Source: Deltaproteobacteria bacterium (lineage in GTDB: Bacteria > Desulfobacterota > Syntrophia > Syntrophales > Smithellaceae). Taken from it: 64,000 bases of DNA. The stretch lies in the NCBI GenBank assembly GCA_012729055.1, contig JAAYDW010000051.1:305-64304 (forward strand), written 5' to 3'. This document shows positions 1 through 46,853 of the stretch, piece after piece. The translations under genes and the position numbers were made by a program. The notes beneath the pieces were generated by a model. That model saw only the letters and a list, made by a program, of their open reading frames with translations. It was not told where the DNA came from and did no database searches. The first letter of the stretch is position 1. Every line of letters starts with the position of its first letter.

Positions 1-2064
1 GAATGCAAATTAAACTTCTTTCAATCAAAGAAGGCGGGCAAGATAGCGGTTGTCACCATGGACAACGGGCAGTTTCCCAATATCCCGAATACCTGGGGCG
101 TTGAAGCCCTCGAATCCCTGAACAAGGTGCTCGATATTGTCGAAAAAGATAAGGACGTCAAGGGATGGTTTCTGACCGGCAAGCCTTTCATTTTCAATGT
201 CGGCGCGGATATCATGAGCGCGGACCCGAATGCGAAAAGAGAAGACGCCCTCACCATCGGCGCGATGGGGCACGCGGCCTTCAAGCGGATTCTGAATCTT
301 CCGTATCCGACGCTGGCGGCTTACAACGGCGCGACCATGGGCGGCGGCGTCGAAGTCGGGCTTTATCACAAATACCGAACCATCTCCAAAAGCCCGGGCG
401 GCTGCGATCACTATGCGCTGCCCGAATGCTTTCTGGGCCTGGTGCCGGGCTGGGGCGGAACACAGCTTGTCACCAAATTGTGCGGCCCGGAGATCGCCAT
501 CGAACTCGTCATTTCGAATCCGCTCAATATGAATAAAATGATCAATTCCATAAAGGCCCTGGAAATGGGACTGGCGGACAGGATGTTCGCACCGGCGGAA
601 TTCGTGGATGAATCCCTGGCGCTCCTCGAGCGCATCATTGCCGGCGAAGAAAAGATCGAGCGCAAAGCGGTCGATCCGAAGATGAGCGACGAGCTTTACC
701 AAAAGACCAAAGCAATGATTGTCGGCAGGGTTCATTCCGGCGCATTGGCCCCCTATCGCGCGCTGGAACTCATCAAGGGAGCAGGCGTTTGGTCGCTCGA
801 TGAAGGGTTCCAGAAGGAAAACGAAGCGCTGGCCGACATGATCACCTCCGATCAGTTCAAATGCGGCCTTTACTCGTTCGACCTCACCCAGCGCCGGGCC
901 AAGAAACTTCCGGGCCGGCCGCCTAAAGAAGTCAAGGGAAACAAGATTGCCAAAATCGGTGTGATCGGCGCGGGACTTATGGCCTCCCAGATGGCGCTTT
1001 TGTTTGCACAGCGCTACCAGTGCCCGGTCGTCATGAAAGACATTAAACAGGAATTCGTGGACAAGGGCCTGGCTTACTGCAAGGATCAGCTGGCCAAGAG
1101 CGCGAAGAAAGGCAAACTGTCCGCGGCCGACGCCAGATGGATCGGCGAAGATCTGATCAGCGGCACAATTACCTATGAACCGTTTGGGGATTGCGACTTC
1201 GTGATCGAAGCCGTTTTCGAAGAAATAGGCATCAAGCAGAAGGTCTTCGGCGAACTGGAAGCCGCCTGCAAGCCCGAGTGCATGTTCCTGACCAACACCT
1301 CGTCGCTCGATGTCGCCGAGATGGGCAAATTCCTGAAAGATCCGTCCCGCGTGGTCGGATTCCACTTCTTTAATCCCATCGCCATGATGCCGCTGGTTGA
1401 GATCATTAAAACGGACAAGACCAGCGATGTCGTCCTGGCCACGGCTTTCGACATTGCCAAAAAGATCAGGAAGACGCCGGTCCTGGTGGCAAACGCGCCC
1501 GGCTTCCTCGTGAACCGCGTTCTGACGGCCATGTCGGACGGCATCTTCCGCGTGCTCGACGAAGGTGCCGATTTCCTGCAGACGGACATGGCCATTCACG
1601 AGATGGGCTTCCCCATGTCGCCTTTCACCCTGACCGCTCTGGTGGGCCCCGCTATCTCCCTGCACGTGCTCGAAACCCTGAACAAAGCGTGGCCGGACCG
1701 GTTCAAGGTGAATGAGGGCCTCAAGAACCTGGTGGCCAAAGGGAAAAAGGCCATCCTGATTCTCACCGACAAGGGCATAGCCGTCGATCCGGAAATTTTG
1801 GCCGGCTGGCCGCAGGGCAACAAGAAGTTCACCGACGACGAGATCCGGCAGAGAGTGCTGGAACGGATCGCCGTGGAAGTCGACATCATCCTCAAAGAAG
1901 GCGTCGTAGCGAGCCCGAAAGATGTGGATACGGGGGTCATCATGGGCGCCGGCTGGCCGTTGTTCATGGGCGGGATCACGCCTTATCTGGATCAGAAAGG
2001 CATTTCGAAAAAGGTAACGGGGAGCGACTTCCACCCGAACGGTTTTCTGGCAATAGAAAAATAG
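1..2064 (+). CDS. Bifunctional enoyl-CoA hydratase / 3-hydroxyacyl-CoA dehydrogenase (FadB/FadJ-like); 5' end lies outside the window
   Basis: Frame 1 is open from base 1 (..KIAVVTMDNG..), so the ATG at 58 is internal. Crotonase-type N-terminus (FIFNVGADI). Rossmann GxGxxG (IGVIGAGLMASQMA). 3-hydroxyacyl-CoA DH region (GFHFFNPIAMMPLVEI). Confidence 0.9.
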   Translation, partial: ECKLNFFQSKKAGKIAVVTMDNGQFPNIPNTWGVEALESLNKVLDIVEKDKDVKGWFLTGKPFIFNVGADIMSADPNAKREDALTIGAMGHAAFKRILNLPYPTLAAYNGATMGGGVEVGLYHKYRTISKSPGGCDHYALPECFLGLVPGWGGTQLVTKLCGPEIAIELVISNPLNMNKMINSIKALEMGLADRMFAPAEFVDESLALLERIIAGEEKIERKAVDPKMSDELYQKTKAMIVGRVHSGALAPYRALELIKGAGVWSLDEGFQKENEALADMITSDQFKCGLYSFDLTQRRAKKLPGRPPKEVKGNKIAKIGVIGAGLMASQMALLFAQRYQCPVVMKDIKQEFVDKGLAYCKDQLAKSAKKGKLSAADARWIGEDLISGTITYEPFGDCDFVIEAVFEEIGIKQKVFGELEAACKPECMFLTNTSSLDVAEMGKFLKDPSRVVGFHFFNPIAMMPLVEIIKTDKTSDVVLATAFDIAKKIRKTPVLVANAPGFLVNRVLTAMSDGIFRVLDEGADFLQTDMAIHEMGFPMSPFTLTALVGPAISLHVLETLNKAWPDRFKVNEGLKNLVAKGKKAILILTDKGIAVDPEILAGWPQGNKKFTDDEIRQRVLERIAVEVDIILKEGVVASPKDVDTGVIMGAGWPLFMGGITPYLDQKGISKKVTGSDFHPNGFLAIEK

Positions 2065-2113
2065 CGTGTTGAGTGAGCGAAATTTGCTCGATCAACAGAG
2101 ACACCACAATATA

Positions 2114-2199
2114 GCAGGGAACGGCTTGCGACCTCGCGCCACCTTCAGTGTGGTCAGGTTATCGCGACCACCCTTGCGGGCGGCAAGACCGTTCCCTGC
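2114..2199 (+). other. Intercistronic long-range RNA stem-loop
   Basis: GCAGGGAACGGCTTGC (2114-2129) is complementary to GCAAGACCGTTCCCTGC (2183-2199) with one bulged A. It lies in the gap between the fadB-like stop and the acd start. Confidence 0.4.
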
Positions 2200-2230
2200 A
2201 TCTCATCAACAATGGAAGGAGGAGGTTTCT

Positions 2231-4069
2231 ATGGCAAGTTTGTGGATTGATGAAAGAGATATCAAATTTCAGTTGTATGAGGTTTTCAATATCGGAGAAA
2301 CGATTCTGGGCAAGGGACGTTACACCGATCATGACGTCGACATGTGCAACATGGTGCTCGATCAGGCGCAGAAGTTCGCCGAGACCGACATCGCTCCCAC
2401 CTATCCGGATGAAGTTCATCGCAAACCGGTCGAAGCGGTCTTCAAGGAAGGCAAAGTGCTCGCGCCGGAAGCCTATCATCGCATCTGGAAGGTTTATAAC
2501 GAAGGCGGCTGGATGTCCGTATCCGATTCGGCCGAAGTCGGCGGGCAGGTCTTTCCGCAGATCATCGGGGCGTCCTGCTACCACATGTTCCTGGCCGCCA
2601 ACCAGGCCTTTTTGATGTACGCGGGACTGACGCACGGCGCGGCGCGGCTTGTGGAAGACTTCTTCCAGCACCCCCTGCGCGAAGTCATCCTCGAAAAGAT
2701 GTACACGGGCGTGTGGGGCGGCACAATGTGCCTCACCGAACCCAGCGCCGGTTCCGACGTGGGCGCGCTCAAGACGACCGCCAAAAGGAATGCGGACGGC
2801 ACGTACTCCATTACCGGCACCAAGTGCTTCATCTCCGCCGGCGACCATGACCTGACGGAAAACATCATTCATCCGGTGCTCGCCCGCATTGAAGGCGATC
2901 CTGCCGGCACGAAGGGGATTTCCATTTTTGTCGTTCCCAAGATCCGCATCAACGAGAAGGGCGAACTGGGCGAGCCCAACGACGTCAACTGCGGCGGCAT
3001 CGAAAGCAAGATGGGCATTCACGGCAACGCCACCTGTACGCTGAACTTCGGCGAGAACGGCAAATGCATCGGCTACCTCATGGGCGAAGAGCGCGCCGGC
3101 ATGAAGATCATGTTCCAGATGATGAACGAAGAACGCCAGGGCGTCGGCATGATGGGCGTTTCGCTCGCGATGGCGGCGTACCTGCACGCGCTCGACTACG
3201 CCAAACAGCGCCTCCAGGGCCAGAACATCATCTCCGTGGCCATGAAGGACGAAAAGGCGCCTCAGGTGCCGATCATCCAGCATCCGGACGTCCGCCGCAT
3301 GCTGCTGAGGCAGAAGTCCGTCACGGAAGGCATCCGGGCGCTGACGTTCCTTTGCTACTATGCGATGGACAAGGAAATGATTGCTCATAACGAGAACAAC
3401 GAGCAGGACAAAGAATACTGGCACGGCATGATCGAAATGCTGACCCCGATGGTCAAATCCTACTGCACCGAGATGGGCATGGACGTCTGCCAGCTGGCCG
3501 TGCAGACCTACGGCGGATACGGCTTCTGCCGTGAATATCCGGTCGAGCAGATGATGCGCGACCAGAAGATCAACCTGATTTATGAAGGCACCAACGGTAT
3601 TCAGGCGATGGATCTTCTGGGACGTAAACTCGGAATGAAGAAGGGATTGTATTTCATGAATCTTCTGGGGCTGACCCAGGCGGCAATTGCCGAGGCCAAG
3701 AAATCCGACGCGCTTGCAGCCGAAGCCGCCGTTGTGGAAGGCGCGCTCAACGCCTGCGCGGGAGCCGCCATGGAATTCGCCAAGATGATGAAAACCACGC
3801 CATACGTTCCGCTCATCGGCGCCGCGGATTACCTCAACTGCCTGTCCGACGCGCTCGTGGGCTGGCTGCATATCTGGATGGCCAACGCCGCCGCCAAGGG
3901 CCTGGCCAATGCCGCAAACGACAGGGAAAAAGCGTTCTACAACGGTAAAATCCAGGGAGCGAAATTCTTCATCAACCGCATCACCGCGCTGGTACCGGCC
4001 AAACTGGAGACCCTCAAGAAGGACGAGCAGAGCGCCATGAACATCGCCGAAGAAGCCTTTGCCGTCTAA
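2231..4069 (+). CDS. Acyl-CoA dehydrogenase (long, about 610 aa form with C-terminal extension)
   Basis: ATG at 2231 is preceded by GGAAGGAGGAGG. Motifs TEPSAGSDVGALKT and YEGTNGIQAMDLLGRK are typical of the ACAD family. The upstream part of the 2066 ORF is Arg/Pro-rich and looks non-coding. Confidence 0.9.
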   Translation: MASLWIDERDIKFQLYEVFNIGETILGKGRYTDHDVDMCNMVLDQAQKFAETDIAPTYPDEVHRKPVEAVFKEGKVLAPEAYHRIWKVYNEGGWMSVSDSAEVGGQVFPQIIGASCYHMFLAANQAFLMYAGLTHGAARLVEDFFQHPLREVILEKMYTGVWGGTMCLTEPSAGSDVGALKTTAKRNADGTYSITGTKCFISAGDHDLTENIIHPVLARIEGDPAGTKGISIFVVPKIRINEKGELGEPNDVNCGGIESKMGIHGNATCTLNFGENGKCIGYLMGEERAGMKIMFQMMNEERQGVGMMGVSLAMAAYLHALDYAKQRLQGQNIISVAMKDEKAPQVPIIQHPDVRRMLLRQKSVTEGIRALTFLCYYAMDKEMIAHNENNEQDKEYWHGMIEMLTPMVKSYCTEMGMDVCQLAVQTYGGYGFCREYPVEQMMRDQKINLIYEGTNGIQAMDLLGRKLGMKKGLYFMNLLGLTQAAIAEAKKSDALAAEAAVVEGALNACAGAAMEFAKMMKTTPYVPLIGAADYLNCLSDALVGWLHIWMANAAAKGLANAANDREKAFYNGKIQGAKFFINRITALVPAKLETLKKDEQSAMNIAEEAFAV

Positions 4070-4365: not shown

Positions 4366-4773
4366 ATGAAGACTTTCAGGAAACGGACAGGAATAGCCGG
4401 GATGGCGCTCGTCTTAACGGTTTCATTCTTCATTTTTCTCTGCGGGGAGGGCACGGCTTTCAACTTTCCGGCAGCCGGCCGGCGCCGCGGCGATGCATCC
4501 ATTGCCCGGGAAAATTCAAAAGCGGCTATCTCCAAAGCGCCGGAATTCGACAATCCCTATATCGAACTGGACATCATCGACTTTGCCGACGCCGATGGAC
4601 ACCGGATCGACCCGGTTTCGCACGACTGTCTGATGAAACGCGCCACGGAACTTCCCGGCGCTTTCAGCGAAAAATACGACAGCTATTCCAAGATTCCGCT
4701 AAACGCCGCCAATCCCAATCTGCCGCCGGGCATACCGGGCCGGACACGGCCTGGCCCTGTGGCGGATTGCTAA
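4366..4773 (+). CDS. Hypothetical small membrane-anchored/secreted protein
   Basis: N-terminal hydrophobic segment IAGMALVLTVSFFIFLCGEG. Codon usage looks like the neighbours. No recognisable family. Start is uncertain (a TTG at 4267 is the alternative). The 3' end overlaps the convergent activator gene by 4 nt. Confidence 0.5.
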   Translation: MKTFRKRTGIAGMALVLTVSFFIFLCGEGTAFNFPAAGRRRGDASIARENSKAAISKAPEFDNPYIELDIIDFADADGHRIDPVSHDCLMKRATELPGAFSEKYDSYSKIPLNAANPNLPPGIPGRTRPGPVADC

Positions 4774-6929
4774 TCGCCGAACGGTTTTCCGGCCAAGCCG
4801 TGCTTTTTCAATTTTCGAAAAAGCGTCGCCCTGGAGATATTGAGTTTGCGGGCAATCTGGACTTTGCTGAATTTCAAATCCAGCATCCGGCCGATGAGAT
4901 TCTTTTCCGTTTCATCGGGCGCCACCAGATCAAAGGAAGTGGATTTTGACCGGTCGATGCCGGCAATATCCGGCGGGACCAAATCAACCGTCAGGCGGTC
5001 CGAAACAGCGTAATTCACCATGCGTTCCACGACATTCTGCAGCTCCCGCACGTTTCCCGGCCAGGAATAACGCAGAAACATCTCCATCACCGTATCATCC
5101 ACGCCGGTGATGGTCTTGCCCAGGGCGGATGCGCATTTCTTAACAAACGCGTCCGCCAGCAGGGGAATGTCGTCTTTCCTCTCGCGCAGCGCCGGCAAAT
5201 GGATGTTGAAAACATTCAGACGGTAATAGAGGTCCTTGCGGAAACTTCCCCGCGCCACTTCCTCGATCAGGCTTTTGTTTGTTGCGCAGACAATCCGCAC
5301 ATCGACCGTCCGGATCTGGTTGGAGCCGATGCGCAGCACGCACTTGTCTTCAATCACGCGCAACAGCACCGCCTGAATTTCCAGGGGAATCTCGGCGATT
5401 TCGTCCAGAAGAATCGTGCCTCCGTCGGCCATTTCAAATTTTCCCTGGCTGCCGCCGCGACGCGACCCCGTGAACGCGCCTTCGCCGTAGCCGAACAGTT
5501 CGCTCGCCATCAGATCGCGGGGAATCGCCGCGCAGTTGATGGCCACATACGGGCCGTCCCGGCGCGGGCTGGCGTTGTGAATGGCTTGCGCCAGAATGTC
5601 TTTGCCCGTGCCGCTTTCACCCAGCAAAAGCACGTTGGACACGCTTTTCGAAATCACATGGGCTTCGTCGATAACCCGCCTAAACCGCTCGTTCCGGCCG
5701 TGGATATCGGAAAACTTCAGGTTGGCCTTGGCGCCCGCAAATTTATTCACCAGGGATTTGATTCTCTGGATTTCCGAAAAAATAAGAATCTTTCCGATGG
5801 CCGCTCCGCCGGACGAACAAATGCTGTTGCAGGTCAGCGTAAAGTCGCCGGGTCCTCTGGAGAAATAAAGGCGAACCTCTCTGTCGCTTTGCGGATCCCG
5901 ACGGTTGATCAAATTCCAGAAACGCCGGTTGGCTTCTTCGGGAAAGACGGTTTCCAGAGGCTCGCCCGTGACGGCGCTGTTTTCCAGTCCGAAGAGCTTT
6001 TGCGCGCGCTCGTTGACGGCGGTGATTTTCCCTTCGGTATTGACGGCGATCAGCGCTTCGGGAATGGAGGCAATAATCGCTTTTTGCAGGCTGTAGGCAA
6101 CGTCCGTTTCGGAAAAGGCGCTCTGCAGGCGGTCCAGCGCTTTGCGGAGTCTCAGCTCGTTTTCAATGGCGTGTACGGCGGCGATGGCCATGCCCAGCGT
6201 GTGCGGGTGCGCGCCGAATAAAAGAGAGATAATGCTGATGCCGCCGATGACCTCGCCTTCCGGATCGATAATCGGCGCGCTCGACGCGGCCAGAAAATGG
6301 AAGATCTGCTTGTAATGCTGGGCGCCGATGATCTGCAGCGGCTTTTTCTGCTTCAGCAGAGTCCCGATGGTGTTGGTGCCGCAGCATTCCTCCGTCCAGA
6401 GCGCGCCGGGGCGCCAGTTGTACTGGCGGTGGAGTTCCACGTACTTTTCATCCTGCATGACTTTCAGAATGTAGCCGTTTTTGTCGGAGAGCGACACGGT
6501 GAAACTGCTGGTCGTCATGGATTTGTAGAGCCTGTCCAGGAAAGGCTGACTGATATCGATGAGCAGCCGGTTGTTTTGAAACAGCTCCTCAAGGGCCCCG
6601 CCCGTCAGGATCTCATTGTTCAGTGCTCCGCAGGGATTGATTCCGTATTCCCGGCTGCGCTGCCAGCTTTTAAAAATCAGCGGCGGAACAACGGACGTGT
6701 CGATCTTTTCCGCGCCGCTGACAAACGCATTCCACTCGCCAAGCGTGAGCTCCTTGAATGCCAGCCACGCCCGCAGGACCTCCTGGGGAGTAACGCCCTT
6801 TTCCAGATCGACTTCGCCGTTGAAAATTTTGTAAAAGTCCAGCGGGGAATCGCTTCCCTGATGGCCCGGACGCGCGTCGTCTGCTTTGGACTTTTCTTTG
6901 GTGATGGTGTCGGTATTCAGATTCTCCAT
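4770..6929 (-). CDS. Sigma-54-dependent transcriptional activator, AcoR-like (GAF + PAS + AAA+ + Fis-type HTH)
   Basis: Walker A GESGTGKD, GAFTGS loop (GEGAFTGSRRGG), C-terminal HTH (KVQIARKLNISRATLFRKLKKHGL). AcoR-type N-terminus (FKSWQRSREYGINP) plus a GAF-like block. PAS segment (IPEALIAVNTEGKITAVNERAQKLF). Confidence 0.92.
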   Translation of the reverse strand: MENLNTDTITKEKSKADDARPGHQGSDSPLDFYKIFNGEVDLEKGVTPQEVLRAWLAFKELTLGEWNAFVSGAEKIDTSVVPPLIFKSWQRSREYGINPCGALNNEILTGGALEELFQNNRLLIDISQPFLDRLYKSMTTSSFTVSLSDKNGYILKVMQDEKYVELHRQYNWRPGALWTEECCGTNTIGTLLKQKKPLQIIGAQHYKQIFHFLAASSAPIIDPEGEVIGGISIISLLFGAHPHTLGMAIAAVHAIENELRLRKALDRLQSAFSETDVAYSLQKAIIASIPEALIAVNTEGKITAVNERAQKLFGLENSAVTGEPLETVFPEEANRRFWNLINRRDPQSDREVRLYFSRGPGDFTLTCNSICSSGGAAIGKILIFSEIQRIKSLVNKFAGAKANLKFSDIHGRNERFRRVIDEAHVISKSVSNVLLLGESGTGKDILAQAIHNASPRRDGPYVAINCAAIPRDLMASELFGYGEGAFTGSRRGGSQGKFEMADGGTILLDEIAEIPLEIQAVLLRVIEDKCVLRIGSNQIRTVDVRIVCATNKSLIEEVARGSFRKDLYYRLNVFNIHLPALRERKDDIPLLADAFVKKCASALGKTITGVDDTVMEMFLRYSWPGNVRELQNVVERMVNYAVSDRLTVDLVPPDIAGIDRSKSTSFDLVAPDETEKNLIGRMLDLKFSKVQIARKLNISRATLFRKLKKHGLAGKPFGD

Positions 6930-7113: not shown

Positions 7114-7129
7114 TGGCATGCGTCCTGCT
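7114..7129 (+). promoter_or_regulatory. Candidate sigma-54 (-24/-12) promoter for the polyesterase-foldase pair
   Basis: TGGCAT-GCGTC-CTGCT compared with consensus TGGCAC-N5-TTGCW. The invariant GG and GC have correct spacing. A divergent sigma-54 activator gene is adjacent. A sigma-70-like TTACAT-N17-TATAAT (7129-7157) overlaps and is an alternative. Confidence 0.55.
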
Positions 7130-7352: not shown

Positions 7353-7406
7353 AGGCGGTAGAAAGCAACTTTTACAGAACTATTAAAAAAAGGGGAGGGG
7401 TTCTTT

Positions 7407-8249
7407 ATGAAAGTTTGGAAAGTATTGTTGGCTTCAATCTTTACGCTGCTGTTAACCGTCAGTCTGGCACATGCGGTGCAGATCGGTCCTGCGCCGACAT
7501 CCACTCTGCTCAACGGCGACGGGCCTTTTGCCGTATCGTCGAGCAGCGTCTCCAGTTGGGTGACGGGCTTCGGCGGGGGGACGATCTACTATCCGACCAC
7601 GTCCGGGCAGTATGCGGCCGTTGCGGTGTGCCCGGGCTTTACCGGAACAAGCTCTTCGATTTCCTGGTTTGCCCGAAGGCTCGCCACACACGGATTTGTG
7701 ACGATTGCCATGAACACGAACACCATCTATGATTATCCGTCGAGCCGCGCCACGCAGCTCGCCGCGGCGCTGCGCTACCTGCTCAACTCTTCGAGCAGCA
7801 CCATCCGCGCCCGCATCCGCACCGCCGACCGCGCCGTGGCGGGGCATTCGATGGGCGGCGGCGGCACGCTCATCGCGTCTGCGAATGATTCGACGCTGCG
7901 CGCCGGCATTCCGCTCACGCCGTGGAACACCTACACCAGTTTCTCCTCGGTGCGCGTGCCCCAGATGATTTTCGGCGCCGACGGAGATACCATTGCGCCT
8001 TATGCGTCGCATGCGCGCCCCTTCTACAACAGCCTCAGCTATCCGGAAAAAGCGTACGCCCTGCTCAACGGCGCAACGCACTTTACGCCGAACAGCACGG
8101 ATCAGCGCATCGGCCGCTACGGCGTGGCTTTCGCCAAGCGTTTCGTTGACGGCGACACCCGCTACACCCCGTTCCTGTGCGGCGCCGAGCACACGGCTTA
8201 CGCAACCAGCTTGCGGTTCGACACATATCTGAGCACCTGTCCGTATTAA
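7407..8249 (+). CDS. Secreted cutinase/PETase-family polyesterase (dienelactone-hydrolase-like alpha/beta hydrolase)
   Basis: RBS GGGGAGGGG. Signal peptide ..TVSLAHA/VQ. By-eye alignment to TfCut2/LCC/IsPETase: GTIYYPT, CPGFTG, ISWFARRLATHGFV, GHSMGGGGTL, IPLTPW, GADGDTIAP, PFYNSL, GATHFTPN, KRFVDGDTRYTPFLC, STCPY. Predicted triad Ser148/Asp194/His225. Cys258-Cys278 pair. Confidence 0.9.
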   Translation: MKVWKVLLASIFTLLLTVSLAHAVQIGPAPTSTLLNGDGPFAVSSSSVSSWVTGFGGGTIYYPTTSGQYAAVAVCPGFTGTSSSISWFARRLATHGFVTIAMNTNTIYDYPSSRATQLAAALRYLLNSSSSTIRARIRTADRAVAGHSMGGGGTLIASANDSTLRAGIPLTPWNTYTSFSSVRVPQMIFGADGDTIAPYASHARPFYNSLSYPEKAYALLNGATHFTPNSTDQRIGRYGVAFAKRFVDGDTRYTPFLCGAEHTAYATSLRFDTYLSTCPY

Positions 8250-8275
8250 AAGGCGGAAAACGGGAAACACGAAAC

Positions 8276-8300
8276 GCGCCGGATCGCCCCGATCCGGCGC
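8276..8300 (+). terminator. Intercistronic hairpin between polyesterase and foldase (possible attenuating terminator)
   Basis: GCGCCGGATCG-ccc-CGATCCGGCGC followed by GTTCTTGCTG. Lies 27 nt after the stop and about 58 nt before the foldase ATG. Confidence 0.45.
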
Positions 8301-8358
8301 GTTCTTGCTGCAAACATTCAACCATCAGGACGATTGACAAAGGAGAAATAGTCTTCCC

Positions 8359-9108: not shown

Positions 9109-9118
9109 AGAAAAAAGA

Positions 9119-9151
9119 GGGAACGGTCGTGACCGTTCCCTACACCTTTTT
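9119..9151 (+). terminator. Probable rho-independent terminator after the foldase gene
   Basis: GGGAACGG-tcgtga-CCGTTCCC stem, then TACACCTTTTTG. Confidence 0.5.
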
Positions 9152-9296: not shown

Positions 9297-9369
9297 TGCC
9301 TGCGCCTGACCAATGCGGCAGGATCGTCGCCTAATCGGTCAAATATTGAAGCAGGATGAGGAAAAGAGC

Positions 9370-10932
9370 ATGCCTTTTGAAAAAGAACTGGAACATCTGG
9401 AGAAACTGAAAGAGAAAGCCCGGCAGATGGGCGGACCCGCCAAAATCAAGATTCAGCGCGACAAGAAAAAACTGGCAGCGCGCGAAAGGATTCCGCGCCT
9501 CCTCGACCCCGGCACCTTCCTGGAAGTCGGAATGCTCAACTGCTCGGACGTTCCGGGTATGGAAGAAAAAACGCCCGCGGACGGCAAGGTGGGCGGATAC
9601 GGAAAAATTCACGGACGGCCCGTGGCCGTCATCGCCAACGACTTTACAGTGCTCGCGGCCACCAGCAGCCGCGTCGCCGCGCGCAAGGAAGTCGATATCA
9701 AGAGCGAGGCGGTGCGCCGGGGCTTTCCGCTCATTTATCTGGGAGAAGCGGGCGGCGCGCGGATGCCGGACATCATGGGCGCCAGAGGCCTGGCCTCTTA
9801 CGGCGGCGGCGGCTACGACACGTTCGTGGAGGCGATGAGCCGCGTGCGCCGCTCTCCGCTCGTCACCGCCATCATGGGGGAATGCTACGGCATGCCGACG
9901 TGGATGGCCTGCCTGTCGGATTTCGTCGTTCAGGTAAAAGGCAGCGCCATGGGCGTCTCCGGCCCCCGGGTGCTGGAGCTGGCGATCGGCGAAAAGATCA
10001 CGGATGAAGAACTCGGCGGCTGGAAGGTCCACGCTGAAATCACCGGCAACATCGACCGCGTGGCTGAAAACGATGAAGCGTGCATGGACATCATCCGCGA
10101 ATACCTGTCCTACATGCCCTCGCACTGCGATGAAAAGCCGCCCGTGCTTCCCGTCCCCGAGGGGTCCGGCGCTGCCATGGACAAGATTCTCAGCATTCTG
10201 CCCGAAAAAAGGAACCGCGCCTACGACATGAACAAAATTTTAAAGACGATTGCCGACGGCGGCCTTCTGTTTCCCATAAAGCCCGATTTCGCCAAGAGCG
10301 TGATCACGACGCTCGGACGCATTGACGGCCGGGTGGTGGGCTTTGTCGCCAATCAGCCTTCTTTCGGCGCGGGCGCGATCGACACCAACGGCATCGACAA
10401 GATCACCAGTTTCCTGGTGTTGTGCGATTCCTTCAACATCCCCCTGCTCTTTTTCGAAGATACGCCGGGATTCCTGGTCGGTCGGGAAGCGGAGCGCAAC
10501 CGCGTGGGCGCGAAGGTGATGAATTTCATGAACGCCCTGGGGCAGATCACCGTTCCCAAAATCACGGTGATTGTCCGCAAAGCATACGGCATGGCGTTTC
10601 ACACAATGGCGGGCCCCGGATGCCGGACTGATTTCATCGTCGCCTGGCCCACGGCGGAAGTGAGCTTCGTCGCGCCGGAAATCGCGGCCAACATCGTATT
10701 TGCCGGAAAGATGGCCGGTTCGCCGGAGCTCCAGACCCAGAAGGACACGTACATTTCGGAGATGGTTCGCGACAGCGCCCCCTACTCGGCGGCCGGCGCG
10801 CATTTTTTCCAGGACGTCATCGATCCGCGCGACACGCGCGATTTCATCATCCGGGCGCTGGATATCTGTGAAGACCGGCGCACGGGAGGCATCGGACGGC
10901 ATCTGCTGGCAAACTGGCCGACCAAGTTCTAA
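9370..10932 (+). CDS. Acyl-CoA carboxylase/decarboxylase carboxyltransferase subunit (PccB / MmdA / GcdA family)
   Basis: Two-domain carboxyltransferase pattern (GRPVAVIANDFTVLAATSS; GRVVGFVANQPSFGAGAID; VPKITVIVRKAYGMAF). The ATG at 9370 gives the typical MPFEKELEHLEK.. N-terminus. Confidence 0.9.
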   Translation: MPFEKELEHLEKLKEKARQMGGPAKIKIQRDKKKLAARERIPRLLDPGTFLEVGMLNCSDVPGMEEKTPADGKVGGYGKIHGRPVAVIANDFTVLAATSSRVAARKEVDIKSEAVRRGFPLIYLGEAGGARMPDIMGARGLASYGGGGYDTFVEAMSRVRRSPLVTAIMGECYGMPTWMACLSDFVVQVKGSAMGVSGPRVLELAIGEKITDEELGGWKVHAEITGNIDRVAENDEACMDIIREYLSYMPSHCDEKPPVLPVPEGSGAAMDKILSILPEKRNRAYDMNKILKTIADGGLLFPIKPDFAKSVITTLGRIDGRVVGFVANQPSFGAGAIDTNGIDKITSFLVLCDSFNIPLLFFEDTPGFLVGREAERNRVGAKVMNFMNALGQITVPKITVIVRKAYGMAFHTMAGPGCRTDFIVAWPTAEVSFVAPEIAANIVFAGKMAGSPELQTQKDTYISEMVRDSAPYSAAGAHFFQDVIDPRDTRDFIIRALDICEDRRTGGIGRHLLANWPTKF

Positions 10933-10954: not shown

Positions 10955-11953
10955 TCAGGGGGCGAGGGCTTCCACCAGACCGTCCATACGGTCGCCGGTC
11001 TGCGTCAGGCGCGTTTTTACGAATCCCGCTTCCTCAAGCCAGGAGCGAATTTCATCAAACGTGTAGGTCGACCCTCCCTGCGTGTTCATCAGCATGTTCA
11101 CCGCAAAGAGTGCCCCGTCTTTCGGCGTGACGCGATCCGGCGCCATAACGTGATCGCGGATGATGATCCGTCCTTCGGAAACCAATGCGCTGCGCACTTT
11201 CCGGAAGAGCGCAATATTTTCCGCGGGACTGTTCTGGTGGATGATGGCGGAAACGAGCGCCAGATCGTGTCCGCCGGGAAGCTCGTCCGTGTAAAAATCT
11301 CCCTCCACCAGGCGGACCCGGCGCGCGAGCCCCGCTGCGGCCAGGCGCTCGCGCGCCAGGGGTATCACCTCGGGCCGGTCAAACAGCGTCGCCCTCATAA
11401 AAGGCGCGGTTGAAAGAAAGGCGATCGTGTACGTGCCGGACGCGCCGCCCACATCGATCAGGTTCCGGGCGTTTCCGATCTCCACGGCCCTGACGATTTG
11501 CTGCGCCATCGACAGGCCCACCACATGCATGGCCCCGACAAAAGCGCGAACTTCATCGGCAGAACGAATCTCGGCGGGAGGGATCGCAAACGGCTCGCTG
11601 CCGGTTACCTTCGAAGTGAGACCGGACCAGCTTTTCCAGAGGGAATTCGCATGAAGGACCATCGGCAGCACCGAGTGTTGACTTTTGTCATCGAGATACA
11701 CCGCAGCATCGGGCGCCGGGCGATAAGCGCCGTCTGGCGCTTTTACAAGCAGACCCATGGCCGCGAGGGCGTCAAGAAGAATCGTCAGGCCCCGCAAATC
11801 AGCCGGCAGCCGCGCGGCCAGGGTTGCGGCGGTCGCCGGCGCTTCGGTAAGCAGCGTAAAAAGGTTCAACTCGGCGGCGGTCAGCAAAAGCCTGCTTTCC
11901 ATAAAGCCGCGGGCCAACTTCAAAATGTCCTGTGCCGTGTGTGCGTTTGTCAT
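10955..11953 (-). CDS. Class I SAM-dependent O-methyltransferase (family-2 type with N-terminal dimerisation domain)
   Basis: SAM motif I LIDVGGASGTYTIAF. Length about 330 aa, with a winged-helix-like N-terminal domain. Confidence 0.85.
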   Translation of the reverse strand: MTNAHTAQDILKLARGFMESRLLLTAAELNLFTLLTEAPATAATLAARLPADLRGLTILLDALAAMGLLVKAPDGAYRPAPDAAVYLDDKSQHSVLPMVLHANSLWKSWSGLTSKVTGSEPFAIPPAEIRSADEVRAFVGAMHVVGLSMAQQIVRAVEIGNARNLIDVGGASGTYTIAFLSTAPFMRATLFDRPEVIPLARERLAAAGLARRVRLVEGDFYTDELPGGHDLALVSAIIHQNSPAENIALFRKVRSALVSEGRIIIRDHVMAPDRVTPKDGALFAVNMLMNTQGGSTYTFDEIRSWLEEAGFVKTRLTQTGDRMDGLVEALAP

Positions 11954-12225: not shown

Positions 12226-13116
12226 TCACGGACGTCTTTTTGCCGTTCCCAGGCGCGACTGGAGATAAGCCGTCAGGTTGACCGGCTCGTTTGCGATCTT
12301 GAATTTCCGGCGGATGTGTTCACGGTGCCGATGAACGGTCGCCTCGGAAACGCCCCGCAGCCGGGCGATTTCCTTCGAGCGCATGCCGTTGCGGATCATG
12401 TTGCAGATGTCCACCTCCGCGGGCGTGAGCGTGCGGAACAGGTCGCCCCCCCGCTCGACAAACGGAGAGGAAATTTCCTGAAGACTGGTCTTTAAAATTT
12501 CCAAATATGTGAGCTTGTTTTCCGGAACGGCGGGCGCGAGCGCGGAAAGAACCGGCATAACGACCTTGTCGATGTTCATCTGTATGTTTTCGTAAATCCG
12601 TCTTTTTTCCTCTTCGATGTTGGAGAGAACGACGCGTAGCGCCGCATTCGCCTCCTGAAGCGCCTTTCTTTCGAGAAGAAGCTGCCGGTTGTATTCCTGC
12701 AGATCCTGCCGGGCCGTAACCCCGACGGCGATCTCACCGATCCGCTGGGCGATCGCTTCCAGCAGGGCCCTTTCTTCCCGCAGAAACGGGCCTTCATCCG
12801 CTTCCGGCCGCTCTTCGGCATAAAGGACGGTCACGTCGCCCGCGGATTCGCCGCCGACCCGGATTTGCGCGGTTTGCCGCCACCCGGTCCACGCAAACTT
12901 TTTGCTTTCAAACGTCTCTCCCCGAAAGACAATACGCGCGCAGGCGACGTCTTCATAGCGCCAGGACCGCGGAAGAAAATCGGCAAGCGATTTCAGAAAT
13001 TCCTCCATGGAATTCCCGTGGCTTTCCGCCAGGCGCGCCATCCCGTACAAGCAGTTCAACTCCTTAATCCGTTCCTGCAGAGCGATTTCGAGGCCGTCTT
13101 TTCTTTCCATCACCAT
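12226..13116 (-). CDS. LuxR/GerE-family transcriptional regulator with an uncharacterised N-terminal sensor-like domain and a coiled coil
   Basis: C-terminal HTH LTPAEVDICNMIRNGMRSKEIARLRGVSEATVHRHREHIRRKFKI. N-terminal IKELNCLYGMARLAE block. Central coiled coil. Confidence 0.85.
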   Translation of the reverse strand: MVMERKDGLEIALQERIKELNCLYGMARLAESHGNSMEEFLKSLADFLPRSWRYEDVACARIVFRGETFESKKFAWTGWRQTAQIRVGGESAGDVTVLYAEERPEADEGPFLREERALLEAIAQRIGEIAVGVTARQDLQEYNRQLLLERKALQEANAALRVVLSNIEEEKRRIYENIQMNIDKVVMPVLSALAPAVPENKLTYLEILKTSLQEISSPFVERGGDLFRTLTPAEVDICNMIRNGMRSKEIARLRGVSEATVHRHREHIRRKFKIANEPVNLTAYLQSRLGTAKRRP

Positions 13117-18720: not shown

Positions 18721-19443
18721 ATGAAAAAAACAGTGTTGTTCTGTGTCGGTATTTTGATGCCGGCGCTCTTGTGCAGCGGCTGCCTGGTTGCGGAGAGCAA
18801 ATACACGAAGAAAGTCGATGAAGCAAACCAGTTAACGCAGCAGATCGCCTCTCTGGAAACCCAAAACAAGGGGCTCACGGAGCAGGTGGCGTCCCTGACG
18901 GGAAAAGTGGCCGATCTGGAAGCGGATAACGCCGGCCTCTCGGAAAGCCTCGACCGGGCAGCGAAAAAGACCCAGGAACAGGAAAAAGCCAGCAACACCT
19001 ATCAGCAGCTGCTCAAGGAAATGAAAAGCGAAATCGCCCAGGGGCAGATCACCATCAAGGAGCTGAAAGGCAAGCTGACGATGGACGTCGTCGATAAAAT
19101 CCTCTTTGCCTCCGGAGAAGCCAAAGTCAAAAAGGAAGGTCTGGAGGTACTCGACCGGGTGGTGGAAATTCTGAAGGACGTACAAGACAAAAACATCCGC
19201 ATTGAAGGCCATACGGACAACGTTCCGATTGCCGGGAAGCTCGCGAAGACTTATCCTACCAACTGGGAATTGTCCGCGGCCCGCGCCATCAACGTCTCCC
19301 GCTACCTGCAGCGGCAGGGCATCGATCCGTCGGTTCTCTCGGCAACGGCGTTCGGCGAATACCAGCCGATCGCGGACAACACGACGCCCGAAGGCCGGGC
19401 GAAGAACCGCCGGATCGCCATCATTTTGCTGCCCAAGGATTAG
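18721..19443 (+). CDS. OmpA/MotB-domain lipoprotein with N-terminal coiled coil
   Basis: Lipobox-like LLCSGC. Heptad-rich segment (QLTQQIASLETQNKGLTEQVASLTGKVADLEADNAGL). OmpA C-terminal motif RIEGHTDNVPI..NWELSAARAINV. Confidence 0.85.
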   Translation: MKKTVLFCVGILMPALLCSGCLVAESKYTKKVDEANQLTQQIASLETQNKGLTEQVASLTGKVADLEADNAGLSESLDRAAKKTQEQEKASNTYQQLLKEMKSEIAQGQITIKELKGKLTMDVVDKILFASGEAKVKKEGLEVLDRVVEILKDVQDKNIRIEGHTDNVPIAGKLAKTYPTNWELSAARAINVSRYLQRQGIDPSVLSATAFGEYQPIADNTTPEGRAKNRRIAIILLPKD

Positions 19444-19474
19444 CGCCGGCCGGTTTTGCAGCAAGGAAAGTTTC

Positions 19475-21409
19475 ATGGGAAAAAACATCGTAGAAAAAAT
19501 TCTCGCCGGGCATCTGGTTTACGGCGCGCTTGCGCCCGGCGGGGAAATCGGCCTCCGCATCGACCAGACCCTCACCCAGGACGCCACGGGCACCATGGCT
19601 TATCTGCAGTTTGAAGCCATGAACGTCCCCCGGGTCCGCACGGAGCTGTCCGTCAGCTACATCGACCACAACACGATTCAGATCGGTTTTGAAAACGCGG
19701 ACGATCACCGGTACCTGATGAGCGTCGCGCAGAAGTTCGGCATTGTGCTGTCGCGCGCCGGCAATGGGATATGCCACCAGGTCCACCTGGAGCGCTTCGG
19801 GCGTCCGGGAAAAACGCTGATCGGCTCCGACAGCCACACGCCCACCTGCGGCGCGCTGGGCATGATCGCCATCGGCGCGGGCGGACTCGACGTCGCGCAG
19901 GCCATGGCGGGAGAGCCCTTTTACCTCGCCTGCCCGTCCGTGGTGAAAATTCTCCTCGAAGGCCGGCTTGGGCCCTGGGTTTCCGCCAAGGACGTCATCC
20001 TCAAAGTGCTGGAAATTTTCTCCACCAAAGGAAACGTCGGAACCGTTTTCGAATACGGCGGCCAGGGCGCAGCGACGCTGAGCGTTCCGGAGCGCGCCAC
20101 CATCGCCAACATGGGCGCGGAATGCGGCGTGACGACCTCCGTGTTTCCCAGCGACGAACAAACCCGCCGGTTTCTCTGCCTGCAGGAGCGAGAGGCGGAT
20201 TTCACTCCGCTCAGCGCCGACGCCGACGCGGCTTACGCCCGCGTGGTGACCATCGACCTGTCGCGGATTGAGCCGCTGGCCGCCAAGCCGCACAGCCCCG
20301 ACAACATCGCCACGGTCCGGTCTCTCACCGGCATCCCCGTACAGCAGGTCTGCCTGGGGAGCTGCACCAACTCTTCCTACAAGGATCTGGTGACGGTCGC
20401 CAGGATCCTCAAAGGCCGGATTGCGCATCCCGACGTGAGCTTCATTTTGGCGCCGGGCTCCCGGCAGGTTCTCGACAATCTCGCCCGCGACGGCTACCTG
20501 GCGGATCTGATCGCTTCCGGCGCCAGGCTCATGGAAAACGCCTGCGGCTTCTGCATCGGCAACAGCCAGAGTCCGCAGTCCGGCGCGGTTTCGCTGCGCA
20601 CCTCCAACCGGAATTTTCTCGGCCGGTCTGGAACGCTCGACGCCGACATCTATCTGGTAAGCCCCGAAACGGCGGCGGCGGCGGTCATCACCGGCCGCTT
20701 CACCGATCCGCGCGACCTGGAAATGGACTACCCCGACGTGCCGGCGCCCGAACGGCTGGTTGTCGACGACCGTCTGATTTTGCGGCCGGAAGACGCGGGG
20801 CGGACCGTGGAAATCTACCGCGGCCCGAACATCGGCCGGCCGCCGGTCAACACGCCGCTGCCCGACACGCTCGCCGGTCCGGTAACGATCAAGGTCGGCG
20901 ATAAGATCACGACCGACCACATCATTCCCGCCGGCGCGCGGATGAAGTACCGCTCGAACATTCCCAAGTACGCCGAATTCGTTTTTGAAAACGTGGACGC
21001 CGCGTTTGCCCGCCGCGCCTTGGCCAACAAGGAAGCCGGCCGGCACAACATCATCGTCGCCGGTCTGTCCTACGGCCAGGGATCGTCGCGCGAACACGCC
21101 GCCATCTGTCCGATGTATCTGGGCGTGCGGGCGGTCATCGCCAAGTCTTTGGAGAGAATCCACGCCGCCAACCTGATCAACTTCGGCATCCTGCCGCTCA
21201 CGTTCGTCGATGAAAAGGACTACGACGCCCTCGACGCGGGCGACAACCTCGAAATCGCCGGTCTGAGAACAGCCGTCGCAACCCGGGAAGTCCTGACGGT
21301 CGCCAATCGGACCAAAGGCGCCTCTTTCGCCGTGCGCCTGAGCCTGTCGCCCCGGCAAAAAAAGATGATTCTGGCCGGCGGCGCGCTCAACGTCCGCAGT
21401 CGGAAATAA
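19475..21409 (+). CDS. Aconitate hydratase (about 640 aa single-chain form)
   Basis: ATG at 19475 (MGKNIVEKIL). Aconitase motifs IDQTLTQDATG, GSDSHT, CLGSCTNSS, NACGFCIG, GQGSSREHAA. Confidence 0.9.
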   Translation: MGKNIVEKILAGHLVYGALAPGGEIGLRIDQTLTQDATGTMAYLQFEAMNVPRVRTELSVSYIDHNTIQIGFENADDHRYLMSVAQKFGIVLSRAGNGICHQVHLERFGRPGKTLIGSDSHTPTCGALGMIAIGAGGLDVAQAMAGEPFYLACPSVVKILLEGRLGPWVSAKDVILKVLEIFSTKGNVGTVFEYGGQGAATLSVPERATIANMGAECGVTTSVFPSDEQTRRFLCLQEREADFTPLSADADAAYARVVTIDLSRIEPLAAKPHSPDNIATVRSLTGIPVQQVCLGSCTNSSYKDLVTVARILKGRIAHPDVSFILAPGSRQVLDNLARDGYLADLIASGARLMENACGFCIGNSQSPQSGAVSLRTSNRNFLGRSGTLDADIYLVSPETAAAAVITGRFTDPRDLEMDYPDVPAPERLVVDDRLILRPEDAGRTVEIYRGPNIGRPPVNTPLPDTLAGPVTIKVGDKITTDHIIPAGARMKYRSNIPKYAEFVFENVDAAFARRALANKEAGRHNIIVAGLSYGQGSSREHAAICPMYLGVRAVIAKSLERIHAANLINFGILPLTFVDEKDYDALDAGDNLEIAGLRTAVATREVLTVANRTKGASFAVRLSLSPRQKKMILAGGALNVRSRK

Positions 21410-21441
21410 TTCCGCATTTTCACCCGATGGAGTAAAATGAA

Positions 21442-22665
21442 ATGAGCCGAAAAATTAAAGTGAAGACGCCTCTCGTCGAAATGGACGGAGACGAGATGAC
21501 CCGCATCATGTGGCAGATGGTGAAAGACAAGCTGCTTTTTCCCTATCTGGACATGGACATCGACTACTACGACCTCCACGTCAAGCACCGCGACGATACG
21601 GACGACCGGGTCACGGCCGACGCGGCGCGCGCCATCCAGAAATACGGCGTCGGCGTCAAGTGCGCAACGATCACGCCCAACGAAGACCGGGTGAAGGAAT
21701 ATACGCTCAAGAAAGCCTGGAAAAGCCCCAACGGCACGATCCGCGCCATGCTTGACGGCACGGTGTTCCGCAAGCCGATTCTGGTCGGCAACATCAAACC
21801 GGGCGTCGCCGCCTGGAAAAAACCGATCACCATCGGCCGCCACGCCTACGGCGACGTTTACGACAACTTCGAAATGACCGTTCCCGGCGCGGGCAGACTG
21901 GAAGTCGTCTTCACGCCGGCCGACGGCGGAGCGCCGCAGAAGGAACTCGTGAAGGACTTCCCCGCGGCGGGAATCGTCCAGATCAACCACAACCTGGAGG
22001 CGTCGATGCGGAGCTTCGCCCGGGCCTGCTTCACCTACGCGCTTTCCGAAAAGATCGACGTGTGGTTTTCCACCAAGGACACGATCTCCAAAAAGTATGA
22101 CGCGGGCTTCCGCGACGTCTTTGAACGCGAATTTGCCGAGCACTGGAAAGACCGATTTGCCCGGGCGGGCATCGAATACTTCTTTACGCTCATCGACGAC
22201 GCAGTCGCGCGCATCATGAAGACGGAAGGCGGAATGCTCTGGGCGCTCAAAAACTACGACGGCGACGTGATGTCGGACATGATCGCATCCGCGAGCGGGT
22301 CGCTGGCCATGATGACCTCCGTCCTGGTTTCGCCCTACGGTTGGTACGAATATGAAGCCGCGCACGGCACGGTGCAGAAGCACTACTACAAGCACCTGAA
22401 GGGCGAGGAAACCTCCTCCAACTCGATGGCGCTGATTTTCGCCTGGACCGGCGGCCTGCGCAAGCGCGGCGAACTCGACGGCACGCCGGAAGTCGTCGCT
22501 TTTGCGGACACGCTGGAGGCGGCCGCCCTCGCCACGGTTGAAAGCGGCGTGATGACGGGCGATCTGCTTCTCCTGGCCGAAAAACGGCCCACGAACCGGA
22601 AGGTCAACACGGAAGGCTTCATCGACGCCATCGCCGGAAACTTAAAGAAAAAAATCGATGGCTGA
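21442..22665 (+). CDS. icd: NADP-dependent isocitrate dehydrogenase (eukaryote-like dimeric type)
   Basis: [46 protein letters not shown]. Confidence 0.93.
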
Positions 22666-44966: not shown

Positions 44967-45015
44967 GTGCTGCCTCCTGTGGTAGGGAACAGTCGCGACT
45001 GTTCCCTACATGACG

Positions 45016-45786: not shown

Positions 45787-45798
45787 GGATCATCCCCC

Positions 45799-46065: not shown

Positions 46066-46092
46066 AAATACTCCTCCTTTAATTTCATTTGA

Positions 46093-46818: not shown

Positions 46819-46853
46819 ACAAACTCCTTTACCGGTTGATCGGTATCCGCCTT

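Follow-up and report, generated by a model that had tools for sequence, protein, structure and literature searches.

In the classical lipase–foldase pairs, such as LipA–LipH of Pseudomonas aeruginosa, the lipase–Lif pair of Burkholderia glumae (2ES4) and LipA–LipB of Acinetobacter baumannii (9G8U), the gene of the hydrolase comes first and that of a membrane-anchored chaperone second, and the clients are lipases of families I.1 and I.2. The cutinase-like hydrolases of bacterial lipase family III include the type I actinomycete cutinases (TfCut2, 4CG1; Cut1/Cut2, 5LUI/5LUJ; Est119; Cut190; LCC, 4EB0), IsPETase (type IIb) and the founder of the family, the lipase of Streptomyces exfoliatus (1JFR). 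The latter comes from a Gram-positive aerobe, has no foldase neighbour (locus L079), and shows that family members can be true lipases or esterases acting on acylglycerols. A preprint on Piscinibacter sakaiensis (bioRxiv 10.1101/2025.11.11.687616) describes a lipase chaperone gene that neighbours the PETase gene, benefits the function of the PETase and is conditionally essential on polyethylene terephthalate (PET). The pairing of a family III enzyme with a chaperone gene is thus not new as such. Here we analyse a 64,000-nucleotide stretch of DNA from a Deltaproteobacteria bacterium of the Smithellaceae (GCA_012729055.1, contig JAAYDW010000051.1, positions 305 to 64,304; hereafter the window), in which the gene of a PETase/cutinase-family hydrolase (hereafter the esterase) is followed by one for a short Lif-type foldase. 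A preliminary description of the same DNA had recognised the hydrolase but overlooked the adjacent foldase gene, from which more can be learnt than from any other feature of the locus.

The esterase gene corresponds to the 280-codon open reading frame (ORF) delimited in the preliminary description, from ATG to TAA, and all the peptide runs quoted there are found in its translation. The family assignment made at that time is upheld by profile and sequence searches. The Pfam PETase model (PF12740), whose cut-off is 28 bits, matches from position 4 to 262 of its 263 with a score of 324.3 bits (E 7.4e-97). A search of the PDB with the protein sequence returned 179 chains, among them family relatives with E values of about 1e-87 to 1e-69. 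The top matches are the reconstructed ancestral PETases 8ETY and 8EU0 (E about 5e-87), and the list includes the Thermobifida cutinases 5LUL, 5LUI and 4CG1 (E 1e-85 to 1e-82), LCC (4EB0, E 7e-73) and the S. exfoliatus lipase (1JFR, E 2e-72). None of the solved structures is more than 57% identical to the esterase, the best match being a reconstructed ancestor. The NCBIfam equivalog for hydrolases of bis(2-hydroxyethyl) terephthalate (BHET; NF051441, BdeA) gives 295 bits, under its cut-off of 520, and a specific function is therefore not transferable from the BdeA model. An antisense ORF of 289 aa laid over the esterase gene (7452..8321, minus strand) was rejected as the shadow of a GC-rich gene, with a GC content higher at first than at third codon positions (GC1 > GC3).

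Export of the protein, as previously proposed, is predicted on sequence grounds. The putative Sec signal peptide carries Lys at positions 2 and 5, a hydrophobic core at residues 6-20 (mean Kyte–Doolittle hydropathy 2.49) and the A-H-A motif ahead of V-Q, alignments with mature PDB chains start at residue 21-25 of the esterase, and the N-terminal helix has low confidence in the AlphaFold2 (AF2) model. The mature protein would comprise 257 aa, with a computed mass of 27.4 kDa and an isoelectric point (pI) of 9.3.

The structure prediction and superposition called for in the preliminary description were carried out and agree with the family assignment. The AF2 model, built on 71 homologues, has a mean pLDDT of 94.4, and Foldseek matches this predicted model to 4CG1, 5LUJ, 3WYN, 5ZNO, 6THS and 1JFR with probability 1.00, target-normalised template-modelling (TM) scores of 0.92-0.95 and root-mean-square deviations (rmsd) of 1.0-1.6 Å; the superposed structures include TfCut2, Thermobifida cellulosilytica Cut1/2, Est119, Cut190, PET40 and LCC. 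For the comparison of single residues we aligned the esterase with IsPETase (a reference sequence identical to PDB 6QGC_A), two Thermobifida fusca cutinases and the S. exfoliatus lipase, the last three taken from genomes (L013, L079). The catalytic triad Ser148/Asp194/His225 had been assigned to the correct codons; it aligns with the triads of IsPETase and the T. fusca cutinases (table 1) and is invariant across 71 relatives. The oxyanion-hole positions Met149 and Phe78 align with M161 and Y87 of IsPETase, Phe78 standing where the references have Tyr, at a position that contributes its backbone amide only. Trp173 corresponds to the "wobbling" W185 of IsPETase.

The features that set IsPETase apart are absent, in line with what had been claimed for the Trp before the nucleophile and for the extra disulfide. 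His147 takes the place of W159 ahead of the nucleophile, H202/F206 that of the subsite II pair S214/I218, and F226 that of S238 after the catalytic His; A191 and T227 stand at C203 and C239, so that the PETase-specific disulfide is missing, as is the 3-residue loop extension between beta8 and alpha6. With IsPETase the esterase shares a Gram-negative host, Sec export and, by the description in the preprint, an adjacent chaperone gene. With the type I actinomycete cutinases it shares the Pfam family, fold and triad, the His/Phe pair at positions 214/218, the single C-terminal disulfide and the lack of a loop extension; it differs from them in having Phe78 for Tyr, a 2-residue insertion before the last Cys and an extra free Cys75. 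The disulfide predicted between Cys258 and Cys278, a pair already singled out in the earlier reading, finds support in the relatives P0056, P0067 and P0074, in which both cysteines are missing at once. By its residues, the pattern is thus type I (one disulfide, His/Phe pair, no loop extension, His before the nucleophile), and the modelled active site (His147, Trp173, His202, Phe206, Phe226) is an open, lid-less cleft of the cutinase type.

Some relatives of the esterase depart from this layout. Two proteins from Smithellaceae metagenome-assembled genomes (MAGs; P0011 and P0053) carry a C-G-(T/S)-G-C-A-G-G insertion that replaces G-F-G-G-G (window residues 53-57) before the first core strand and forms a second cysteine pair, at a site unlike that of the IsPETase-specific disulfide. 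Trp-rich tags, which may be sorting or anchoring signals, are found at the C-terminus of P0020 (DGGTEPDPDPEPDYPWWWWWR) and in N-terminal linkers at locus L009, from an uncultured Smithella (AQWWW(F/I)SSSS...).

A neighbour-joining distance tree of the family (126 sequences, Kimura distances, 270 columns, 100 bootstraps) places all Lif-linked esterases in one Gram-negative clade of 49 tips (bootstrap 95). This clade is sister to IsPETase and two IsPETase-like proteobacterial sequences (bootstrap 82), while T. fusca and other actinomycete cutinases fall outside both groups. The esterase is 46% identical to IsPETase, 53-55% to the type I actinomycete cutinases (54-55% to those of T. fusca), 49-52% to the S. 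exfoliatus lipase and 61-72% to the proteobacterial members. This intermediate position fits with the best PDB match, which is an ancestral sequence reconstructed for the PETase lineage. The esterase thus looks like a type I enzyme by its motifs and a member of the Gram-negative branch by descent: of the earlier label "TfCut2/LCC-like", the motif pattern stands and the implied descent does not. The 49-tip clade contains no solved structure and no identified characterised enzyme. We also considered whether the foldase linkage is ancestral to all Gram-negative members of the family, which is not supported, the proteins encoded downstream of the family members at loci L024 and L051 being unrelated to the short Lif (hhalign probability 7%). 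The two hydrolases in question (L024:5440-8106 and L051:3766-6160) are 61% identical to IsPETase, with an extra N-terminal domain of about 190 aa and type II cysteines; the conserved membrane-anchored protein of 361-435 aa downstream of them has no Pfam hit and may be a different kind of helper.

The gene downstream of the esterase encodes a protein of 249 aa that is, by sequence and predicted structure, a short-form Lif homologue and probably acts as a foldase. Pfam Lipase_chap (PF03280, "Proteobacterial lipase chaperone"), the family shared with the classical Lif pairs, matches residues 155-239 at 41.2 bits (cut-off 25.7), and the NCBIfam lipase secretion chaperone model gives 52.9 bits over positions 73-221 of 336, its equivalog cut-off of 285 not being reached. 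The cluster of proteins at least 90% identical to it contains an NCBI entry named "lipase secretion chaperone [Smithellaceae bacterium]". A profile of ten members, searched against the PDB, finds A. baumannii LipB (9G8U_B, E 7e-8, the match ending at residue 182 of 302) and, marginally, minidomain 1 (MD1) of P. aeruginosa Lif (5OVM/6GSF, E 0.02-0.05). In the AF2 model (pLDDT 80) an anchor helix is joined by a disordered linker to a helical body: the putative membrane anchor lies at about residues 13-32 (hydropathy 2.49 at 14-28; modelled helix 6-32), the low-confidence linker at 56-88, and a helical, putatively lipase-binding region at about 90-244. Its best fold matches are again classical Lif structures, namely B. 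glumae Lif (2ES4_E), 9G8U_B and LID1 of P. aeruginosa (6GSF), the matches spanning some 160 of the 270-285 residues; for 6GSF the probability is 0.97, with an rmsd of 2.5 Å over 65 columns. The foldase is acidic (pI 5.2), which, set beside the basic mature esterase, is compatible with folding of the one on the other.

A profile search for this foldase family recovered 120 members, all of 134-268 aa, from Smithellaceae, Steroidobacteraceae and many Burkholderiales (Roseateles, Pelomonas, Rubrivivax, Aquabacterium, Hydrogenophaga, Piscinibacter aquaticus), whose source names are lipase secretion chaperone, helper protein or modulator. Ten sequences, 30-63% identical, share 16 invariant positions, and the reading frame is intact at all loci examined. 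In the variable, disordered linker, a Cys-x4-Cys motif (C66-x4-C71, codons 8554..8571; A-C-(S/G)-(S/T)-(A/P)-(D/E)-C-(K/T)) is kept in the Smithellaceae-type foldases (those of the window, L010, L090, L091 and L093), and is absent from the proteobacterial ones.

The order esterase, then short Lif is found in the window and at loci from an uncultured Smithella (L009, CAZSQS010000016.1), Deltaproteobacteria bacterium RBG_16_44_11 (L010), Steroidobacter and Steroidobacteraceae MAGs (L011, L012), a Roseateles/Pelomonas isolate genome (L088), five metagenomic contigs (L089-L093), P. aquaticus (L094) and Hydrogenophaga (L095). The pair is present in every examined relative above about 60% esterase identity, and a profile search (E <= 1) found no Lif-like ORF at about 75 other loci, nearly all of them actinomycete. 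The wider surroundings are not conserved, with housekeeping genes at L090 and L093, transposases at L091, a TetR regulator and a pectate lyase at L092, and AraC-type regulators at L088 and L095; the esterase and foldase genes therefore travel as a unit. Furthermore, the two proteins co-diverge, their identity matrices being correlated with r = 0.64, a value reached in 52 of 5,000 Mantel permutations. The foldase diverges faster, the identities of esterase and foldase to the window pair being 88 and 63% at L090 and 65 and 30% at L088, and the nearest relative that is not identical reaches 77% identity, where that of the esterase reaches 95-96%. Together with its composition (see below), these values suggest that the foldase has evolved fast or has had a history of its own.

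The modules of aerobic Proteobacteria (Roseateles/Pelomonas, Hydrogenophaga, P. aquaticus, Steroidobacter) belong to the same esterase clade (61-67% identity) and show the same gene order, with foldases 30-32% identical to that of the window (measured for L012 and L088). They differ in their aerobic hosts and in the AraC-type regulator that follows the pair, where the window has an anaerobic syntroph lineage, a sigma-54 activator and beta-oxidation genes. Comparable arrangements are said to exist in Roseateles depolymerans TB-87 (a chaperone-like gene, Est-Ch, accompanying Est-H/Est-L) and in Acidovorax delafieldii, whose depolymerase PbsA for poly(butylene succinate) and its adipate copolymer, PBS(A), reportedly has a chaperone-like ORF downstream; the enzymes of both species reportedly degrade aliphatic and aliphatic-aromatic polyesters.

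Several of the related loci show variations of the module. At L009 (1-7607) six PETase-family ORFs in tandem precede one short-Lif gene. Two of them, close paralogs at 68-70% to the window protein, have a "CDAQWWW" motif and, after it, long poly-Ser linkers. The other four are distant members (28-31%) that lack C-terminal cysteines and have boxes of the form G-[FHW]-S-[KM]-G-G. Ser/Asp/His are kept in all six. At L090 (6001-10901, an ERZ795052 contig with an 88% relative) the esterase and short Lif are followed by a classical-type lipase of 480 aa (Abhydrolase_1/Lipase_2, Lipase_C and AF_1763-like_C domains) and a second esterase paralog (90% to the window protein). As this cluster holds a foldase, a classical-type lipase and two esterases, a single foldase gene may serve several hydrolases. 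Y1 and DDE transposase genes lie directly upstream of the pair at L091 (3052-5510, a 79-83% identical relative), which hints at a mobile module. In P. aquaticus (L094:3060-3829, VOPW01000001.1) the esterase, with identities of 62% to the protein of the window and 51% to IsPETase, is split in two frames at about position 3212 with no gene called, and is either a pseudogene or affected by a sequencing error.

Between the two genes of the window lies a region of 116 nt with a folding energy of -37 kcal/mol (z = -2.64 against shuffled sequences), containing a GC-rich hairpin. Strong hairpins occupy the equivalent position at nine related loci, some followed by T-runs, and those of L010, L090, L091 and L093 have an identical stem with differing loops. 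The element is probably a leaky terminator or an mRNA stabiliser that would set the esterase:foldase ratio by lowering foldase expression.

Taken together, these data lead us to put forward that the locus encodes a Sec-exported, foldase-assisted esterase, lipase or polyesterase that feeds fatty acids to the neighbouring beta-oxidation pathway, an explanation that we regard, taken whole, as moderately probable. The precursor would be exported to the periplasm through Sec and cleaved after Ala23. By analogy with the LipA/Lif systems and from the conserved linkage we infer the following steps: the 27-kDa basic esterase would probably be folded or activated by the acidic, inner-membrane-anchored short foldase, the C258-C278 disulfide would be made after folding, and the enzyme would presumably be released from the cell via the type II secretion pathway, as are Lif-dependent lipases. 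Hydrolysis would be performed by Ser148/Asp194/His225, and the predicted oxyanion hole would be made by the main-chain amides of Phe78 and Met149. The substrates would most likely be insoluble natural esters of anoxic sludge or sediment, that is, triacylglycerols, waxes, cutin- or suberin-type or other aliphatic polyesters, and the syntroph would break down the released fatty acids with the beta-oxidation enzymes encoded alongside, with expression perhaps controlled by the divergent sigma-54 activator. Given the lid-less cleft, the record of the family and the adjacent beta-oxidation genes, the release of fatty acids from insoluble esters is the most economical reading.

A number of observations weigh against this explanation. 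In fold, the foldase resembles classical Lifs to a modest degree (TM about 0.4 across some 160 residues), the MD1 motif RxxFDY(F/C)L(S/T)A reads R-L-N-I-E-K-L-Y-A-L, with the Arg invariant and the remainder altered, and the C-terminal 90-115 residues or so of the classical Lifs of about 340 aa (minidomain MD2) are absent. Actinomycete homologues, and IsPETase in Escherichia coli, fold without a dedicated foldase, so that foldase dependence is not a rule of the family. The foldase gene has an atypical composition (GC 0.516, GC at third codon positions 0.588, about -3.9 standard deviations from the window genes), and with a strong hairpin between the genes, co-expression of the two is not certain. 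Formation of the disulfide assumes oxidation in the periplasm of a strict anaerobe. No homologue of the type II secretion ATPase is encoded in the window, which is uninformative for the remaining genome. The proximity of beta-oxidation genes is not conserved in relatives, and a metabolic link between esterase and beta-oxidation is accordingly lineage-specific at best. Finally, matches to the sigma-54 consensus TGGCAC-N5-TTGCW are not above chance over the window, 9 being found where 28.7 are expected.

In an alternative scenario, which we consider unlikely though worth serious attention, the esterase is a stand-alone cutinase that folds unaided like TfCut2 or LCC, the Lif-like gene being vestigial or serving another client, for example a classical lipase encoded elsewhere. 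The type I residue pattern, the level of identity to the self-folding Thermobifida cutinases, the loss of the C-terminal third of classical Lifs, the intercistronic hairpin and the deviant codon usage of the foldase gene would all agree with such an enzyme, and the classical-type lipase gene after the foldase gene at L090 provides a conceivable other client. Against it, the adjacency has been kept across three phyla in unrelated neighbourhoods, always with this esterase clade; esterase and foldase co-diverge, the foldase frame and its core are conserved, and most of the loci lack any other lipase. The P. sakaiensis chaperone, as described in the preprint cited above, offers a functional precedent.

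As to substrates, hydrolysis of polycaprolactone, of polybutylene succinate-type polymers or of BHET, together with a weak attack on amorphous PET, is plausible by analogy with the family. That the enzyme is instead a plastic-adapted hydrolase of PET or aromatic polyesters, selected for synthetic polyester depolymerisation in waste treatment, appears improbable. The family contains all efficient PET hydrolases, Trp173 and the oxyanion Met149 are in place, and the contigs apparently stem from metagenome assemblies. However, not one of the IsPETase-specific adaptations (Trp159, Ser214/Ile218, Ser238, second disulfide, extended loop) is present, the score against the BHET-hydrolase equivalog falls well under its cut-off, and the neighbouring genes are those of fatty-acid metabolism, not of terephthalate or ethylene glycol catabolism. 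Moreover, the diversity of the clade (60-96% identity) and its spread over several phyla indicate that it is far older than plastics.

The anaerobic, Desulfobacterota-like host proposed in the preliminary description is supported by the names that NCBI gives to proteins at least 90% identical to the flanking acyl-CoA dehydrogenase, carboxyltransferase and 981-aa sensor kinase, all of them Smithellaceae, Syntrophaceae, Smithella sp. or Deltaproteobacteria bacterium. Known members of the Smithellaceae, a family of the Syntrophales (Thermodesulfobacteriota), are obligate anaerobic syntrophs. The esterase protein occurs as a 100% identical copy on 19 contigs of up to 225 kb (ENA, the NCBI MAG GCA_028702735.1 and Logan assemblies) with constant gene order. 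The gene itself is common, not a rarity: dozens of relatives 70-96% identical are found in metagenomes and NCBI MAGs under the labels Smithellaceae, Syntrophaceae or Deltaproteobacteria, where they already go by the names alpha/beta hydrolase, triacylglycerol lipase or dienelactone hydrolase. A scan of species-representative genomes gave at least 600 matching stretches, which are a sample of the relatives, and the window's own genome is not among the matches listed. The composition of the esterase gene (GC 0.616 and GC3 0.765, against 0.597±0.029 and 0.755±0.043 for 33 other window genes; codon-adaptation-like index 0.653, within or near their spread) is that of its host, and recent horizontal transfer of this gene was rejected on these grounds, the foldase gene alone being deviant. 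Chimerism of the contig or recent import of the esterase gene is unlikely, given this composition, the Smithellaceae-type flanks and the 19 contigs. Although the closest cultured-genus relatives among the matches listed are aerobes (Steroidobacter, Roseateles, Hydrogenophaga), an L091 relative lies beside transposase genes and relatives of 86-88% identity hold the module in different neighbourhoods, the notion of an artefact or passenger (a chimeric contig, mis-binning, or a gene acquired very recently from an aerobic proteobacterium and not expressed) is highly improbable in view of the identical protein and gene order in different samples, the host-like esterase gene, the dense set of close relatives with Smithellaceae, Syntrophaceae or Deltaproteobacteria labels and the Smithellaceae-type genes on both flanks.

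Table 1. Features of the esterase–foldase locus and its upstream neighbours (window coordinates)
Feature	Position	Strand	Basis or remark
End of beta-oxidation operon	1..4069	+	Pfam hits recorded for the identical contigs
Enoyl-CoA hydratase/3-hydroxyacyl-CoA dehydrogenase fusion	to 2064	+	Pfam
Acyl-CoA dehydrogenase, 612 aa	2231..4069	+	Acyl-CoA_dh_M/_1/_C on 2231..4066
Sigma-54 enhancer-binding protein, 719 aa, divergent	4770..6929	-	N-terminal sensor region, PAS, AAA+ sigma-54 interaction domain, helix-turn-helix (HTH)
Candidate sigma-54 -24/-12 element TGGCATGCGTCCTGCT (GG-N10-GC)	7114..7129	+	278 nt upstream of esterase start; two mismatches to TGGCAC-N5-TTGCW
Shine-Dalgarno-like GGGGAGGGG	7392..7400	+	6 nt 5' of esterase ATG; direct sequence reading
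Esterase gene	7407..8249	+	ATG, 280 codons, TAA; PETase/cutinase-family (lipase family III) serine hydrolase precursor
Predicted Sec signal peptide, residues 1-23, MKVWKVLLASIFTLLLTVSLAHA / VQ	7407..7475	+	Hydropathy and A-x-A site
Nucleophile Ser148 in G-H-S-M-G-G	7848..7850	+	IsPETase S160; T. fusca cutinase alignment
Catalytic acid Asp194	7986..7988	+	IsPETase D206
Catalytic base His225	8079..8081	+	IsPETase H237
Cys258 (8178-8180) and Cys278 (8238-8240), predicted C-terminal disulfide	8178..8240	+	IsPETase C273/C289
Intercistronic GC-rich hairpin, 13-bp stem ACGCGCCGGATCG / CGATCCGGCGCGT, 3-nt loop, then TCTTGC	8274..8302	+	Folding
Short Lif-type foldase gene, 249 aa	8359..9108	+	Pfam Lipase_chap, NCBIfam, PDB profile and fold matches; next gene after the esterase here and at 14 related loci
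Terminator-like hairpin, T-runs on both strands	9118..9141	+	10 nt after foldase stop; end of two-gene unit

The sigma-54 and beta-oxidation neighbours that had been read from the sequence were both recovered as Pfam domains (table 1), and on the parent contig a thiolase gene lies just upstream of the window. The divergent activator matches Sigma54_activat (215.7 bits), PAS, AAA_lid_14 and HTH_8, with MimR_N recorded on the identical contigs, and its scores against DhaR- and PrdR-like equivalogs stay under the cut-offs. As a candidate regulator it could act on the esterase operon, the beta-oxidation operon or both. The -24/-12-like element upstream of the esterase is a weak promoter candidate, kept for its position because a similar site (GGGCATGAATTATGCA) precedes the esterase at L010, where alone among the other loci a sigma-54 activator lies next to the pair. 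A regulator co-inherited by the window and L010 is not supported: the two activators share the AAA+ core only (39% identity over residues 374-706).

Within the window there is no second copy of the esterase or the foldase, and an Rfam scan of it gave no family at gathering score. Downstream of the two-gene unit follow a carboxyltransferase gene (9313..10932), methylmalonyl-CoA decarboxylase alpha-like with 387 bits, below the cut-off, and, on the minus strand, genes of an O-methyltransferase and a LuxR/GerE regulator (10955..11953 and 12226..13116); the order from 9313 to 13116 is conserved on all contigs with the identical esterase. Genes of the aconitase family (735 aa) and the isocitrate/isopropylmalate dehydrogenase family (407 aa) are adjacent at 19202..22665. 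At 42521..49301 (minus strand) the order and size of the ORFs fit an N-type ATPase operon, as named in the preliminary description (beta 461 aa, small ORFs, a 241, b 256, alpha 522, gamma 306), a layout in which the 461-aa subunit alone was domain-checked (ATP-synt_ab).

In our view the short-Lif-linked clade is a more interesting object than the single enzyme, being a structurally unsampled branch that falls between IsPETase and the type I cutinases used in industry. In practical terms, the conservation of the foldase gene serves as a warning, in that the esterase expressed alone may be inactive or poorly folded. A literature search combining the PET-hydrolase family with Smithella, Syntrophaceae or Desulfobacterota retrieved no paper linking them, which is weak evidence. 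Current understanding is not overturned by these findings, and their value is incremental. Smithella is described as a fatty-acid-degrading, hydrogen-producing syntroph, and oleate feeding enriches it in digesters (PMC7934545). A secreted esterase beside beta-oxidation genes suggests that some Smithella-group syntrophs hydrolyse ester lipids or polyesters themselves, with relevance for fat-rich digesters and for the anoxic fate of biodegradable polyesters. Syntrophs of this group are usually seen as consumers of fatty acids and alkanes freed by other organisms. More tentatively, the clade might represent unstudied polyesterases that, in contrast to the actinomycete enzymes of biotechnology, undergo obligate maturation by a dedicated "half-size" Lif, the smallest natural steric chaperone of its type, and the window enzyme an obligately anaerobic syntroph's own extracellular depolymerase. 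If so, the short foldase would be a tool for producing otherwise insoluble members of the family, and a single organism would couple the hydrolysis of lipids or polyesters, natural and possibly synthetic aliphatic or aromatic ones, to syntrophic beta-oxidation and methanogenesis.

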